The notes beneath the pieces were generated by a model. The model saw only the letters and a program-made list of their open reading frames with translations. It searched no databases and was not told where the DNA came from. From positions 1-41,222 of IMG/VR virus record IMGVR_UViG_2588253749_000003: DNA of 41,222 nucleotides. One strand, given 5' to 3'. Below, in pieces: positions 11,381 through 16,300 of the stretch (positions are counted from its first letter, which is position 1; each line of letters begins with the position of its first letter). The DNA is from a virus (Duplodnaviria > Heunggongvirae > Uroviricota > Caudoviricetes). The position numbers and the translations under genes were made by a program.

Positions 11381-11680
11381 TTATAAGAAATCGGTTTCAT
11401 AACTTTGCCCACCATGATAGATACCGACAATAAAGACTTTTCTGCCATCAACGGCAAAAGCAATAATCGTTCTGTGGCGGAAATGAGTTACCCGCATCCC
11501 CTGGCGAATATCATCGCGTTTATTGCCCCGATGCGGGAATGTAGAAAACCCATCAAGATAATCAAGAAGCGCATTGGCATAATTGTCAGCAATGACGCTT
11601 CCTGCTTTCTCCGTTATGTATCTGTGCAGGTTGATTATCTGCTGTTCGGCCTCAGGAGTAATGATGACTTCATATGTCAT
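11381..11680 (-). CDS. parE: ParE/RelE-family type II toxin
   Basis: 99 aa from ATG 11680; MTYEVIITPEAEQQIINLHRYI...IVGIYHGGQSYE fits ParE pattern; 5-nt gap after upstream antitoxin. Confidence 0.7.
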   Translation of the reverse strand: MTYEVIITPEAEQQIINLHRYITEKAGSVIADNYANALLDYLDGFSTFPHRGNKRDDIRQGMRVTHFRHRTIIAFAVDGRKVFIVGIYHGGQSYETDFL

Positions 11681-11685
11681 GCAGA

Positions 11686-11943
11686 TTACTTCCCGGATCG
11701 AATCGCAGCGCGAACCTGTGAAATGGAGCGTCCGTTGTTCGGGTTTTTGCGGATTGAATCCAGGGAGGGGGCGGCTGAATGCGTTAACCACGCTTCGATT
11801 GCTTTATCGCGCTCATTCAGTGCGCGAAGCCCTTCACGAATGACCTCGCTTTCTGAAGCATAGGCACCGGAAGCCACACGGGCGCGCACCATGTCAGCCA
11901 TCTCGTTAGTTAATGTAATGCTGAATTGTTGGGTTGTACGCAT
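11686..11943 (-). CDS. parD: ParD-family (ribbon-helix-helix) type II antitoxin
   Basis: 85 aa from ATG 11943 with GAGG SD; FSITLTNEMADMVRARVASGAYASESEVIREGLRAL matches ParD/CopG-type pattern. Confidence 0.7.
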   Translation of the reverse strand: MRTTQQFSITLTNEMADMVRARVASGAYASESEVIREGLRALNERDKAIEAWLTHSAAPSLDSIRKNPNNGRSISQVRAAIRSGK

Positions 11944-13774: not shown

Positions 13775-14328
13775 TCGTAAATATGATATACCCGGAAATT
13801 ACAGGCAAAAGCGGCGAGCATTTACGTCTAAAAACGCTGGAAGCCGTCTGGATCCAGGGGAAATTACGGATGTGGGGGCGTTGGTCGTACATAGGTGGTG
13901 GCAAACCAGGAAATATGTTCAATCAGTTGCTGGCATCCAAAACACTTACAAAAACTGCGATCAATGAAGCTCTGCGCAGAATAAAAAAATCAGGGATTGA
14001 TAAAACTGAGCTGGAAGCGTTTTTGCGTGAGATGATCAACAGCAAGCAAAAGAGCGGGCTGGCTTATTGTACTGATGCCGAGGCGTTATGTATCGATCGG
14101 GTAATTAGTGAAGTGTTGGCAGAGCATCCGGGATTGATTTGTATCCTCCGACAAAGATATGAAGGGCTGGGTATGAGCAAGCTGAAAATGGCAGAACAGT
14201 TAAAAAAGAATCACCCTGACTGGAGCCTGAAAACTTGTAGAAATCGCATTGATGTTTGGTTGGCGATGGCTGAAACCATGCTTTTCCTTCCAATGTGCGT
14301 GGCACTTCGGTGCTTTTCTGATAACTGA
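13771..14328 (+). CDS. Late-gene antiterminator Q-like protein
   Basis: 185-aa ORF directly after rusA and upstream of late genes; call mainly positional, start codon uncertain. Confidence 0.5.
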   Translation: MIVNMIYPEITGKSGEHLRLKTLEAVWIQGKLRMWGRWSYIGGGKPGNMFNQLLASKTLTKTAINEALRRIKKSGIDKTELEAFLREMINSKQKSGLAYCTDAEALCIDRVISEVLAEHPGLICILRQRYEGLGMSKLKMAEQLKKNHPDWSLKTCRNRIDVWLAMAETMLFLPMCVALRCFSDN

Positions 14329-14357
14329 TGATAGAAGTGCATCAGCTATCAATCTTG

Positions 14358-14386
14358 TTGACGTTCATCAAGGTCTGGACAATACT
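14358..14386 (+). promoter_or_regulatory. Candidate sigma70 promoter for the ATPase/RloB-like module
   Basis: TTGACG (14358-14363), 17-nt spacer, AATACT (14381-14386), about 30 nt upstream of ATG 14418. Confidence 0.35.
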
Positions 14387-14417
14387 TACGTTAAGTTCCA
14401 ACATATGGAAGATAAGA

Positions 14418-15608
14418 ATGATATTTACACGATTGAGATTTATCAATTTGTACGCTTTTGAGGATGCAGAGCTTAACCTGTCCTATCCAAGGAAACCTGT
14501 AAACATGCCTCTTGATGGGGAGTTTTTGGCTGGACGGCCTAAATTTTACTATAAAAAAGTCTGTATCATAACGGGGGGAAATGCTTCAGGTAAGACGTCA
14601 CTAGGGCGAATTCTTTGTGGAATTCAGGTGTTTCTAAGAACCAAAGAGTTGCGGAGTAATCTGCGAGTGAATAATAAAAATAATGATGCTTCGTTTGAAG
14701 TGGACTTTGCTACGGAGGATCATTTTCATCATCGTTTGTATGTACGCTTTGCTACCAGTGAAGGCGGAGCGCACATAATCAAAGAAATTAAATATGGTTT
14801 TGTTCAAATAGCATTAAATGATTCTTGCCATAAAACCACAGAAAAACTGAATCAACTCTTTTCTGGAAGGGCCCCAGAAGATACAGAATATTTTTTTCAG
14901 GAACTAGCTACTGATAGCGAACCAGTTGTATTGGAGTTTTTCAAGCAACTTAAGTTTTTTGGTGGATGGTACTATTTGTTGTCTGAAACTAAAGAGAGTA
15001 CCACTGCAATTTCAGGAATGAATAAAAATATTCTTGAAAGGATAATTCGCACTTTCGATTCAAGTATTATAGGAGTTACCGAGATGCTGGAGTCTGAAAG
15101 TGACGGGGATGAAAATAAATCATCTGCGGTTTATCTGATTAAATTTAAAAACTCTGATTCTCTTGTCGTTACCAGTAAAGGTGAAATAATTAACTCAGAC
15201 CGTCTTTCTCGAGGAACATACGAGGCAGTGACGGTAGCGCATTTTATAAGCGCTATTATCTCTGATTGTGAAAGACTAGGTAAGCAATCTCTAATACCAT
15301 CAATGACTTATTTTCTTGACGAGAAATTGGCTTATACACATTCAGAGTTAGAGCGTATGATTGTGGCGCTGATTATATCTAATTTGAAAGAAAATACTCA
15401 GTTTTTCTATACAACGCATAACATGGATATTTTTGAGTTGGATCTGCCTGTTCATTCGTTCATTTTTATTAAAAAAACGAAAGACTATTCGGAGTTTGTT
15501 GAAGCAAATTCAGTTGTTAAAAAAAATGACCGTAGCATGCGAAACGCTGTTGAGAGAGATGTCTTTGGTGTCTTACCTGACACATCATTAGTATCGGAGC
15601 TACTCTGA
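14418..15608 (+). CDS. ABC-type (AAA_21/OLD-like) ATPase, candidate defense component A
   Basis: Start MIFTRLRFINLYAFED (typical RecF/SMC-like N-terminus); Walker A GGNASGKTS (14574-14597); signature-like LSRGT; Walker B YFLDE; H-loop FYTTHN; visibly AT-rich. Confidence 0.75.
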   Translation: MIFTRLRFINLYAFEDAELNLSYPRKPVNMPLDGEFLAGRPKFYYKKVCIITGGNASGKTSLGRILCGIQVFLRTKELRSNLRVNNKNNDASFEVDFATEDHFHHRLYVRFATSEGGAHIIKEIKYGFVQIALNDSCHKTTEKLNQLFSGRAPEDTEYFFQELATDSEPVVLEFFKQLKFFGGWYYLLSETKESTTAISGMNKNILERIIRTFDSSIIGVTEMLESESDGDENKSSAVYLIKFKNSDSLVVTSKGEIINSDRLSRGTYEAVTVAHFISAIISDCERLGKQSLIPSMTYFLDEKLAYTHSELERMIVALIISNLKENTQFFYTTHNMDIFELDLPVHSFIFIKKTKDYSEFVEANSVVKKNDRSMRNAVERDVFGVLPDTSLVSELL

Positions 15609-16141
15609 TGGCGGGGTTGTCTAAAATAAGAATAATTTTTGTCGAAGGTGAAACAGAAAACTCTCTTTTTCTGAAGATGAAACAACAGAGAGTTATTGAT
15701 GCCAAATCAATTGTAAAAAGAAACTTTTGGCAAGAGAGCATAAGAAATTATGCGATTACTATTCCGAAGGGAAGTGATATACTAATTGTCTTTGATAGTG
15801 ATGAAGTGGAGCAATCTGCAAGATTCATTGAAAATGTAAAGTTCCTTAAAAACAGAGGGCATAAAGTTTATCTTTTGCAGCAGAAAAGAAATTTTGAGGA
15901 GGAGTTGGCCTGGTGTTGCGGAATTCCTGTAAAAAAACTAATTGCTGGGTTCTGTGCAAAAAAAACATCGGGTATAAATGATTTCAAGAGAGATTTTATT
16001 GCTTGTAACAATCAACTTTCAAAGTTACTGAAAATGGGCATGCAGGAAACTAAGTGGTTTACAAGAGATTTACATGCTGTATTGGAGCCTGTTGCAAGTT
16101 TTAAGTCATCTTTTTCTAAACATTTCAGGTTAACAAGATGA
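15608..16141 (+). CDS. RloB-like / TOPRIM-like small protein (DUF4276-like), candidate defense component B
   Basis: ATG overlaps upstream stop (TGATGG); N-terminal IIFVEGETE motif and downstream ILIVFDSDE (DxD) consistent with TOPRIM-like fold. Confidence 0.6.
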   Translation: MAGLSKIRIIFVEGETENSLFLKMKQQRVIDAKSIVKRNFWQESIRNYAITIPKGSDILIVFDSDEVEQSARFIENVKFLKNRGHKVYLLQQKRNFEEELAWCCGIPVKKLIAGFCAKKTSGINDFKRDFIACNNQLSKLLKMGMQETKWFTRDLHAVLEPVASFKSSFSKHFRLTR

Positions 16142-16276
16142 TTTATTTTCTTTTTTGTTCAGCTGATTGTTTTTGTTTGTAAAATGTCTTGATTTTTTGC
16201 CAATAAACTGTTTCAATCCAGCTACGCTTCGCAAAGCTGTACCGCGAGGCGAATAGCAGACATGGACACCTGAAAG

Positions 16277-16300
16277 AACCCGCTTTATGCGGGTTTTTTT
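16277..16300 (+). terminator. Rho-independent terminator
   Basis: GAACCCGCtttatGCGGGTTTTTTT hairpin plus T-run. Confidence 0.6.

Follow-up and report, generated by a model that had tools for sequence, protein, structure and literature searches.

Some of the best-studied abortive-infection devices, such as Old, Gabija and PARIS, combine an ATPase with a Toprim protein. For AbiL-type pairs, to our knowledge, neither a trigger nor a target nor a structure is known.

AbiL, PARIS and MADS3-4 have a common design, in which an ABC ATPase is combined with a Toprim protein (PMC11464382). PARIS acts through sequestration, followed by trigger-induced release and tRNA cleavage (PMC11464382), and deletion of ariA is not toxic (PMC9122126). 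Its detection rule takes an AriA that scores above the Pfam cutoffs for AAA_15 or AAA_21, which are 32 and 27 bits (PMC9122126). In AAA + TOPRIM_OLD pairs, which are validated toxin/antitoxin pairs, toxicity comes from the Toprim protein and is neutralised by the ATPase (PMC10440598).

We identified, in an E. coli B7A-type lambdoid prophage, an AT-rich insert of two genes, here referred to as gene A and gene B, directly 3′ of a Q-like antiterminator gene. All positions are those of the window, which is the whole stretch of 41,222 nucleotides that was analysed. We consider the insert to be a candidate mobile anti-phage cassette carried as prophage cargo, a split pair of ABC ATPase and Toprim nuclease with AbiL as its closest described system, that would act by superinfection exclusion or abortive infection; we put the probability of this reading at about 70%. 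The earlier note had proposed a defence module from the sequence, and the computational checks that it suggested all pointed in the predicted direction, less strongly for gene B than hoped. It is plausibly defence cargo of a known kind and not a new principle. The features of the region are as follows:

14358–14386, + strand: candidate sigma-70-type promoter, TTGACG-17 nt-AATACT, from a scan and from conservation across loci
14396–14410, no strand assigned: 15-bp palindrome TTCCA-N5-TGGAA, some 10 nt 3′ of the −10 hexamer; a candidate for an operator or for an anti-SD hairpin
14418–15608, + strand: gene A, for a predicted ABC (AAA_15/AAA_21, SMC/Rad50-like) ATPase of 396 aa, AbiLi-like; proposed sensor and regulator
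15608–16141, + strand: gene B, for a predicted minimal Toprim-type protein of 177 aa whose C-terminal half is helical; proposed Mg-dependent nuclease effector (toxin)
16181–16192, + strand: right junction, a 3′-end remnant (…AAAATGTCTTGA) of the original Q-like gene of the backbone, where conserved prophage sequence resumes; from the empty-site alignment with strain 504838
16277–16300, + strand: intrinsic-terminator hairpin AACCCGC-TTTAT-GCGGGTT with a T-run (folding z −3.9), the first terminator 3′ of gene B; backbone and not mobile module

Position and boundaries of the module

The GC content is 0.33–0.39 inside the module versus 0.47–0.57 in its flanks, which bears out the AT-richness that had been noticed by eye. 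The location between Q and the lysis genes was likewise correct, as the gene directly upstream codes for a Q-like antiterminator (phrog_753, E 1e-74), with DUF968/HNH and RusA genes farther upstream, and the genes downstream are those of a methyltransferase, three tRNAs, holins and an endolysin. Related prophages, for example that of strain 504838, align with an empty site at the same place. Of 5426 complete E. coli genomes, only 7 carry the module, and in more than 600 E. coli genomes the match starts only at query position 1853, or position 16181 of the window.

The two genes, proposed before to be translationally coupled, overlap by 1 nt; the stop codon of gene A and the start codon of gene B share the sequence TGATG at 15606–15610, one base off the TGATGG at 15605–15610 given before. 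A GGAG lies 8 nt 5′ of the gene B ATG.

We also considered whether the downstream prophage tRNAs could be a PARIS-style counter-defence tied to the module. This link was unsupported, since a module-free prophage has the same tRNA cluster.

The ATPase gene

The open reading frame of gene A spans 14328–15608, and we placed its start at the ATG at 14418 (MIFTRL...), which is also the RefSeq start and whose Met is invariant in 36 homologues. A longer version of 426 aa, starting from 14328 and overlapping the Q stop codon, is used by some gene callers (P0025). It was rejected because the homologues begin at the Met of MIFT and the stretch upstream of it is a conserved non-coding region with the promoter and the palindrome.

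All the ABC ATPase motifs that had been read from the sequence were found, in order: Walker A (GGNASGKTS), signature (LSRGT), Walker B (YFLDE) and H-loop (TTHN). In the 36 family sequences there is no variation at the key residues of these motifs, namely N55, G58, K59 and T60, R262, S264, G266 and T267, D301 and E302, and T332, H334 and N335. Gene A is not a transporter ATPase. Its best defence match was the PADLOC model of the defence ATPase AbiLi (PDLC02335; E 3.4e-25, 86.8 bits, residues 3–390), and this model was matched by 36/36 gene A homologues, at best with E 6e-32. Weaker PADLOC matches were those to mad3 (E 4.5e-11; 32/36 members), AriA (E 6.5e-8; 16/36 members) and PtuA. In Pfam, AAA_15 scored 30.3 bits (cutoff 32.1) and AAA_21 22.2 bits (cutoff 27).

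The AF2 model of gene A (pLDDT 85) superposed on the ATPase heads of PtuA, SMC (4i99) and Rad50 (3qku), which Foldseek retrieved with E 1e-10, and showed no long coiled-coil helices. Comparison of the gene A sequence with solved structures gave no useful match, and no kleisin-like partners of gene A were found. Judged by its motifs and its predicted fold, gene A is an ABC ATPase of the AAA_15/21 type, similar to SMC, Rad50 and RecF.

The predicted Toprim-type gene

Gene B carries the IIFVEGETE and ILIVFDSDE motifs pointed out before, and their key acidic residues were conserved in 140 family representatives, in which E13, G14, E17, D63 and D65 are each either invariant or kept in at least 90%. 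Q92, N95, E97, E99, F126 and K127 are conserved as well. Toprim domains are defined by a core in which strands and helices alternate, a conserved Glu immediately following strand 1 and a DxD where strand 3 ends (PMC12065111). In the AlphaFold (AF2) model of gene B (pLDDT 91), strands and helices follow one another in the Toprim order, and the acidic residues occupy these canonical places, with strand 8–12 followed by E13-G-E-T-E17 and strand 57–63 ending in D63-S-D65.

The suggestion of a TOPRIM/RloB-like fold held for the predicted Toprim order and the Glu and DxD at catalytic positions, whereas the matches to known families were weaker than hoped. Gene B itself had no significant Pfam match, and no RloB match even at E<=10. 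Among the 140 family members, the only recurring Pfam matches, all of them weak, were to the Toprim clan (OLD-like_TOPRIM, RloB, DUF3226 and Toprim), with OLD-like_TOPRIM matched by 10 members and RloB (PF13707) by 4, at best with E 9.5e-4. DUF4435 (PF14491) was matched neither by gene B nor among the recurrent families listed for these members. The commonest match of the family was the AbiLii model PDLC02337 (69/140 at E<=0.01, best 5.9e-7), which gene B itself matched with E 0.0015 and 17 bits over profile positions 31–53 of 170 only. A few members matched HEC-01B or mad4, and the AriB model was absent among the PADLOC matches of gene B and its family. No HNH nuclease match was found in gene B.

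Profiles built from 18 and from 140 sequences gave only chance matches to solved structures, such as eIF4A and a RAD GTPase, and the NCBIfam matches of gene B were discarded as noise. The PHROG families of both genes have no annotated function. From its model and conserved motifs, gene B is predicted to be a Toprim-type protein.

Candidate promoter, palindrome and terminator

The module had been credited with a promoter of its own at 14358–14386. The site is present, but taken alone it is no better than chance, since a scan of the region found 6 promoter-like sites versus 6.4 expected by chance. What speaks for it is conservation: the TTGACG −35 hexamer, the 17-nt spacer and an (A/G)ATA(C/A)T −10 hexamer are kept 5′ of homologous modules behind four different left flanks (the window, L010, L018 and L011).

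The palindrome TTCCA-N5-TGGAA occupies the same 15-bp span, 19–26 nt 5′ of the gene A ATG, in 11 of the 12 loci checked, and it persists although gene A identity drops to 33%; a looser form of the pattern turns up in the background at 0.007 per 30 nt. Gene A has no Shine-Dalgarno-like sequence other than the 3′ half of the palindrome. The corresponding RNA hairpin is only −3 to −5 kcal/mol. The palindrome may act as a translational brake or as an operator for autoregulation.

The terminator at 16277–16300 had also been attributed to the module. The hairpin is real; however, it is phage-backbone sequence and not the module's own, as it lies in the backbone (16181 onward) and follows the Q-like gene directly, at the same distance, in prophages that have no module. 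Thus, a module-specific terminator was rejected at this site, and across loci no conserved terminator was found 3′ of gene B.

Pairing, spread and genomic context

In each of the 22 loci for which upstream DNA was present, gene A and gene B homologues lie side by side; these loci belong to three phyla (Pseudomonadota, Bacillota and Fusobacteriota). In one locus set the adjacency was 19/19, and the pair was found additionally in Fusobacterium and Lachnospiraceae. The identities of the two proteins fall in parallel across loci, and the homologues are two separate open reading frames in every locus examined. The gene B profile retrieved 607 clusters at 50% identity; the family is abundant in Bacillota, and its members measure 165–185 aa with ATPase partners of 360–400 aa.

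The pair sits in places typical of defence cargo. In lambdoid prophages the module follows two unrelated Q families (the window and L010). In Klebsiella P2-like prophages, a homologue of the pair lies between portal and gpA, the interval known as the old/tin defence hotspot (PMC9122126). Other homologues were found beside prophage integrases, on a 12.7-kb mobilizable plasmid, and in an island that also holds a transposase and further AAA_15 pairs. A tblastn search with gene A of 72,556 plasmids retrieved only an Acinetobacter plasmid.

Comparison with described systems

The parallel with AbiLi/AbiLii, PARIS and OLD-type ATPase and Toprim systems drawn before was sustained, while that with PD-T4-4 was dropped, as no PADLOC PD-T4-4 model was matched at E<=1. 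The caveat that the module might be a divergent or undescribed variant was accurate.

AbiL of Lactococcus lactis ('AbiL' in PADLOC), compared through the PADLOC models, is the closest named relative. The two have in common a two-gene operon, carried as cargo on mobile elements, in which the ATPase gene precedes that of a small Toprim-type protein. They differ in that AbiLii is assigned to Pfam RloB (PMC10440598), of which gene B has no match, and in the size of the ATPase, which is 453 aa in AbiLi (PMC13064643) versus 396 aa in gene A.

PARIS is similar in having an ABC ATPase that serves as sensor and a separate Toprim nuclease effector, often encoded by phages or satellites, and by analogy it is likely the mechanistic template for the module. 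On the other hand, gene A falls under both cutoffs of the PARIS rule (30.3 versus 32 and 22.2 versus 27 bits), gene B is half the size of AriB (~35 kDa) and has no DUF4435, and AriA has the helical inserts IS1 and IS2 (PMC11464382) whereas the gene A model has no long coiled-coil helices.

P2 Old and the OLD family combine the same two activities, ABC ATPase and Toprim, and the Klebsiella homologue of the pair sits in the old/tin locus of P2. With hhalign, the signature, Walker B and H-loop of gene A were each aligned to those of Old, and VEGETE and FDSD of gene B fell on VEGKTE and ADCD (E 0.0016, probability 16%). The similarity is marginal, and in OLD classes 1–2 the ATPase and Toprim are fused in one polypeptide, whereas here they are two open reading frames.

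The NetFlax pairs of AAA (D29) and TOPRIM_OLD (D44, RloB-like, and D60) domains (Ernits et al. 2023), likened here by description, also join a small Toprim protein to an AAA/ABC ATPase; for these, toxin neutralisation was shown but phage defence was not. In HEC-01 and in the MADS proteins Mad3/Mad4, the Toprim partner is likewise separate from the ABC ATPase; their matches to our pair are weak and partial, and no Hma or MADS neighbour genes were present around the module. In case of Septu (PtuAB), the gene A fold is closest to PtuA, but the PtuA HMM matches are weak and gene B gave no match to an HNH nuclease, the type of partner that PtuA has.

Proposed function and alternatives

In the lysogen, the cassette would be transcribed from its own promoter, the conservation of which was observed across loci. 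The palindrome at the start of the transcript could then serve as operator or brake, and the TGATG overlap would lead to the two products being made in fixed proportion. As in PARIS and in the antitoxin-toxin pairs of AAA and TOPRIM_OLD, the ATPase would keep the Toprim protein inactive. A phage cue would act on the ATPase, in which the residues for ATP binding and hydrolysis are all conserved, and the gene B protein would be released or activated. It could then cut nucleic acid through a metal site formed by Glu, DxD and ExE. Perhaps the target is tRNA, which AriB and P2 Old cleave, or DNA, which GajA cleaves, and in either case the infected cell would be halted.

Counting against this defence reading are gene B, which has no significant Pfam match, a marginal AbiLii match, no relative among solved structures in the profile searches and an alignment to P2 Old of 16% probability, and the related ATPase and Toprim candidate HEC-01, which gave no protection in a published coliphage panel.

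The pair could instead be primarily an addiction module, by which the prophage or plasmid that bears it is stabilised, with gene B as toxin and gene A as antitoxin and with no sensing of phages. Pairs of AAA and TOPRIM_OLD proteins do act as toxin and antitoxin in neutralisation assays (PMC10440598), the tight coupling of the genes and the palindrome at the promoter recall autoregulated toxin-antitoxin operons, and the presence of the module on a small mobilizable plasmid would also fit. Yet gene A retains every catalytic residue, which would be superfluous in a passive antitoxin, the module occupies documented defence hotspots, and loss of the ATPase gene is tolerated in PARIS (PMC9122126). 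We regard this explanation as unlikely; it overlaps with the defence reading, since many modules of the toxin-antitoxin kind are themselves defence systems.

That the pair acts on other mobile elements, such as plasmids and satellites, and not on lytic phages, as SMC-like anti-plasmid systems do, appears still less probable. Wadjet-type systems also combine ABC/SMC-family ATPases with Toprim nucleases, and the inactivity of HEC-01 in a coliphage panel would fit such a function, but gene A has neither long coiled coils nor kleisin-like partners and its best HMM matches are Abi and phage-defence ATPases.

A role in the prophage life cycle, as RecF/SbcCD-like DNA processing or recombination for replication or packaging at the distal end of the early-right operon, is suggested by the recombination and replication accessory genes upstream (DUF968/HNH, RusA and Q) and by the resemblance of the ATPase to Rad50, SMC and RecF heads, but is very improbable, as most related prophages do not have the pair, including one of the same Q-to-lysis gene order, while unrelated elements (P2-like phage, plasmid and chromosomal islands) do, and the module is compositionally foreign with its own conserved candidate promoter.

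Within the anti-phage reading, we tentatively raise the possibility that gene B and its ATPase partners form a distinct, widespread and uncurated family, a 'minimal split OLD', separate from AbiL/RloB, PARIS, MADS and HEC-01 and with a trigger and target of its own; its proteobacterial branch would use TTCCA-N5-TGGAA as operator, with autoregulation of ATPase and Toprim as in toxin-antitoxin systems.

Significance

The family offers a very small and cleanly bounded version (396 + 177 aa) of the ATPase and Toprim design with its native candidate promoter. Since it also comes with natural pairs of E. coli prophages with and without the module, with a conserved candidate operator and with homologues that sit in the validated old/tin hotspot of P2, it would be a convenient model. 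Questions suited to it are how a minimal ABC ATPase keeps a Toprim nuclease in check and sets it free, how general tRNA cleavage is in this class, and how lysogens regulate such cassettes.

There is also a gap in annotation, as this putative effector family has no Pfam model, and censuses of defence systems probably undercount it. Nearly all source-named database entries label the gene B family 'hypothetical protein'.

Gene content and boundaries of the cassette

The region under study matches, at 100% identity, positions 3296230-3298201 of NZ_CP035812.1, the chromosome of enterotoxigenic E. coli B7A, and the element that hosts it is a lambdoid prophage. The interval is filled by two co-oriented ORFs, here referred to as A and B.

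14358-14386, promoter candidate from a scan (TTGACG, 17 nt, AATACT)
14396-14410, 15-bp palindrome (TTCCA-N5-TGGAA)
14418-15608, + strand, gene A, ATPase of 396 aa (RefSeq start and homologue alignment)
15608-16141, + strand, gene B, small Toprim-type protein of 177 aa

The mechanical ORF of A opens at 14328. However, the RefSeq start is the ATG at 14418, 36 homologues (363-432 aa) align from this same, invariant methionine, and other loci conserve the preceding 89 nt as non-coding sequence; A was therefore taken as 14418-15608. The 426-aa version of some gene callers (P0025) was rejected, its extension being spurious judging by the homologues and the conserved promoter and palindrome. The upstream in-frame ATG at 14328 (extension 14328-14417) overlaps the stop of the preceding Q-like gene as TGATG, an arrangement matching the A/B junction. 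At that junction, the end of A and the beginning of B share TGATG (15606-15610), with GGAG 8 nt upstream; the translational overlap claimed in the earlier note thus exists, one base away from the position it gave (TGATGG, 15605-15610). The segment was also described there as AT-rich, and indeed its GC content is 0.33-0.39 over 14400-16200 versus 0.47-0.57 on either side.

Upstream of the cassette lie a RacR-like repressor region, a ParE/ParD pair, a DUF968/HNH protein, RusA and a DUF1133 protein, and downstream a small hypothetical gene, a DNA methyltransferase, three tRNAs, a TerB-family protein, two holins, an M15 endolysin and terminase. The DUF1133 protein matches phrog_753 (E 1.2e-74) and is a Q-like antiterminator, so the "Q-to-lysis" placement made from the sequence alone is correct.

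The cassette is an insertion in this backbone. It is carried by 7 of 5426 complete E. coli genomes, and in over 600 others the match is confined to the final 120 nt of the query, from 16181 onward. Strain 504838 has the same backbone (DUF968, RusA, DUF1133, small ORF, methyltransferase, tRNAs, holins), with the Q-like gene directly followed by the sequence from 16181 onward. In the alignment, positions 16170-16192, downstream of B, keep the last ~20 nt of the 504838-type Q gene (…AAAATGTCTTGA), which places the right junction at about 16181. Folding of the 130-nt region (-39.9 kcal/mol, z -3.9) bears out the hairpin at 16277-16300. Since the sequence from 16181 onward follows Q directly in prophages lacking the cassette, the hairpin is a backbone element and not, as had been supposed, the cassette's own terminator. 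No conserved terminator was found 3′ of B across the other loci, each context providing its own.

Gene A encodes an intact ABC ATPase

Against Pfam, A gave sub-threshold matches only (AAA_15, 30.3 bits with a cutoff of 32.1; AAA_21, E 1.7e-4; SMC_N). The PADLOC AbiLi model (PDLC02335) matched residues 3-390 with E 3.4e-25 and was matched by all 36 aligned homologues (best 6e-32); weaker PADLOC matches were mad3 (4.5e-11), AriA (6.5e-8), PDC-M12A and PtuA. The ABC motifs read earlier from the sequence are invariant in these 36 homologues: Walker A (N55, G58, K59, T60), signature (R262, S264, G266, T267), Walker B (D301, E302) and H-loop (T332, H334, N335). The AlphaFold model of A (pLDDT 84.8, pTM 0.86) showed an ABC head that carries a short alpha/beta insert and lacks any long coiled coil, and its Foldseek matches were PtuA of Septu and retron complexes, SMC head and Rad50 (E ~1e-10). 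A housekeeping transporter ATPase, the alternative named in the earlier note, was rejected; the NCBIfam matches to CcmA and RecF were noise (E 0.01 or worse).

Gene B encodes a Toprim-type partner

The HMM search advised for both proteins gave weaker matches for B than for A. B itself had no meaningful Pfam or NCBIfam match, and its match to the PADLOC AbiLii model (PDLC02337) was marginal (E 0.0015, over a short stretch). A word-indexed search found 24 relatives only, all of them lacking a Pfam domain and almost all annotated as "hypothetical". Scanning 1.84 billion representatives in full with the B family profile (HMMER) gave 607 clusters at E<=1e-3, 373 of them at E<=1e-10, with proteins of ~165-185 aa. 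Among 140 members, G14 and D65 are invariant, and E13, E17, N39, D63, N76, Q92, N95, E97, E99, F126, K127, L140 and W151 are at least 90% conserved.

The Pfam families recurring among these 140 members, all as weak matches, belong to the Toprim clan only (OLD-like_TOPRIM 10, OLD-like_TOPRIM_1 4, RloB 4, DUF3226 3, Toprim 2, Toprim_2 2), each unrelated family appearing once. The AbiLii model matched 69 of the 140 (best 5.9e-7), and the other PADLOC matches were mostly Toprim effectors (HEC-01B, PDC-M38B, GajA, an ATPase-Toprim model, Old, mad4).

Structure prediction, also advised earlier, gave a confident model of B (pLDDT 91, pTM 0.87) with the strand and helix order of a Toprim fold: strand 8-12, helix, strand 34-37, strand 57-63, helix, strand 86-92 and a helical C-terminal half. 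In this model E13-G-E-T-E17 directly follows strand 1 and D63-S-D65 ends strand 3, and this predicted placement of E13 and D63-S-D65 agrees with the published definition of the Toprim signature. Foldseek found no match to the model at E<=1e-3, and B sequence profiles found no relative among solved structures. With hhalign, the B profile aligned to the P2 Old sequence (E 0.0016, probability 16%), placing VEGETE on VEGKTE (Old 394-402) and FDSD on ADCD within the C-terminal Toprim region of Old; A likewise aligns to the signature, Walker B and H-loop of Old.

We conclude that B is a Toprim-superfamily protein with its predicted metal-binding site intact, akin to, but not covered by, the curated RloB, OLD and DUF4435 models.

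A and B form a conserved unit on mobile elements

In all 19 loci with upstream DNA (19/19), an A homologue lies directly upstream of the B homologue, with junctions from an 8-nt overlap to a 12-nt gap. The two proteins diverge together, the A/B identities falling in parallel (79/65, 72/63, 58/52, 55/53, 42/37, 39/31, 35/33, 34/31, 33/30, 33/34 and 29/31%). The strict pairing is kept in Fusobacterium animalis and a Lachnospiraceae genome, where B is preceded by a 362-370-aa ATPase of AAA_21 type that has 29-30% full-length identity to A (E 1e-50). A and B are thus a conserved unit on mobile elements, found also on 12 IMG/VR viral contigs and in the following settings.

L010, lambdoid prophage with a Citrobacter koseri-type A homologue: after an unrelated antiterminator (PF03589), before holins and endolysin
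L011, Rac-like E. coli prophage: between potC/potD-like genes (Pfam domains) and integrase; 9 of 5426 E. coli genomes
L004 and L005, Klebsiella P2-like prophages: between portal/terminase genes and gpA
Acinetobacter prophage Ab105-3phi: adjoining the integrase
Acinetobacter mobilizable plasmid of 12.7 kb: carries the pair
L006, Oligella: adjacent to a transposase and to two further pairs of AAA_15/21 and small-protein genes

In Klebsiella the pair sits between gpA and gpQ, where P2 carries old and tin, a locus established as an anti-phage hotspot (PMC9122126); the cassette occupies cargo positions in defence hotspots. The same Klebsiella hotspot holds, on the opposite strand (5866-6615 of L004/L005), a 249-aa gene with no Pfam match, which may be another cargo gene. 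In Oligella urethralis (L006, 1-3819), directly upstream of A and B, two more AAA_15/AAA_21 ATPase genes, each with a small gene lacking a Pfam domain (145 and 166 aa) next downstream, and an rve transposase gene form what looks like a small island of ATPase-plus-small-partner pairs.

Promoter and palindrome upstream of A

On its own the promoter proposed at 14358-14386 carries little weight, being one of 6 promoter-like matches in 3.2 kb where 6.4 are expected by chance. However, the same -35, 17-nt spacer and (A/G)ATA(C/A)T -10 occur upstream of the cassette in four different left flanks (the window, L010, L018 and L011), and the promoter evidently travels with the genes.

Comparison of loci also revealed the palindrome at 14396-14410, absent from the earlier list. 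It lies 19-26 nt before the ATG of A in 11 of 12 loci checked (the window, L003, L004, L006, L008-L011, L018, L019 and L023) and always spans exactly 15 bp, including in Pelistega, Oligella, Acinetobacter and a metagenomic virus, where A identity is only 33-39%. The background of the looser TTCC-N5-9-GGAA is 0.007 per 30 nt over all sequence compared. Neither L024 nor the start regions in Fusobacterium and Lachnospiraceae have the palindrome; TTCCAA-ATA-TTGG, which resembles it and lies ~110 nt upstream, after TATAAT, in the Lachnospiraceae locus, may be due to chance. The palindrome follows the -10-like hexamers by ~7-10 nt, and its 3′ half is the sole SD-like sequence. It is possibly an operator for autoregulation, as in TA operons, or an anti-SD hairpin; as RNA it would fold weakly (-3 to -5 kcal/mol), with no compensatory changes across the loci compared. 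The conserved palindrome is a concrete regulatory lead.

Relation to known systems and proposed mechanism

The A/B cassette shares its architecture with AbiL, PARIS and split OLD systems. For AbiL, the ATPase corresponds through the AbiLi profile, whereas B lacks the Pfam RloB domain of component ii and matches AbiLii marginally. A defining feature of each of PARIS, Septu, MADS, HEC-01 and the fused OLD classes is absent from the pair. We therefore rate the family as a minimal and uncurated branch of ABC-ATPase plus Toprim defence systems, rare in E. coli and broadly distributed. Our literature search found no published test of it. The principle is already familiar, and the family is unannotated, compact and experimentally tractable.

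In PARIS, the AriA ATPase sequesters the Toprim nuclease AriB, and sensing of a phage protein releases it to cleave tRNA (PMC11464382). P2 Old is reported to be an abortive tRNase, AAA + TOPRIM_OLD pairs act as antitoxin and toxin (PMC10440598), and AbiL has been grouped with PARIS, P2 Old and AAA + TOPRIM_OLD systems (PMC13064643). By analogy with these systems, A would gate a Toprim nuclease whose release would lead to abortive infection or growth arrest. A defence function of the cassette is probable (roughly 0.7); that the target is tRNA rather than DNA is given somewhat less than even odds.

Other features of the prophage

The ParE/ParD pair of the early region (11381-11943, - strand), a RelE/ParE-family toxin with a ParD antitoxin, is a second TA-type cargo module. 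The 349-aa DNA methyltransferase (16772-17821) has no adjoining restriction gene and is conserved backbone between Q and the lysis genes. Between it and the TerB-family gene, the tRNA genes (17871-18120) are CAT (Met per ARAGORN, Ile in the RefSeq annotation), Arg-TCG and Arg-TCT; a shortened form of the cluster is also present in a prophage without the cassette, so it is not linked to it.

The backbone segment 16181-16300, present after the Q-like gene in >600 E. coli genomes, is strongly structured (z -3.9), with a terminator at its end and, in our reading, a weak promoter-like TTGATT-17-TTCAAT. It gave a full-length, sub-threshold Rfam match (21.6 bits, E 0.15; gathering score 50) to isrK, which is encoded in the Gifsy-1 prophage. 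Rfam describes isrK as a Salmonella sRNA family that binds Hfq. Possible identities of this segment are a late-promoter leader with a tR′-like terminator and an IsrK-like sRNA.
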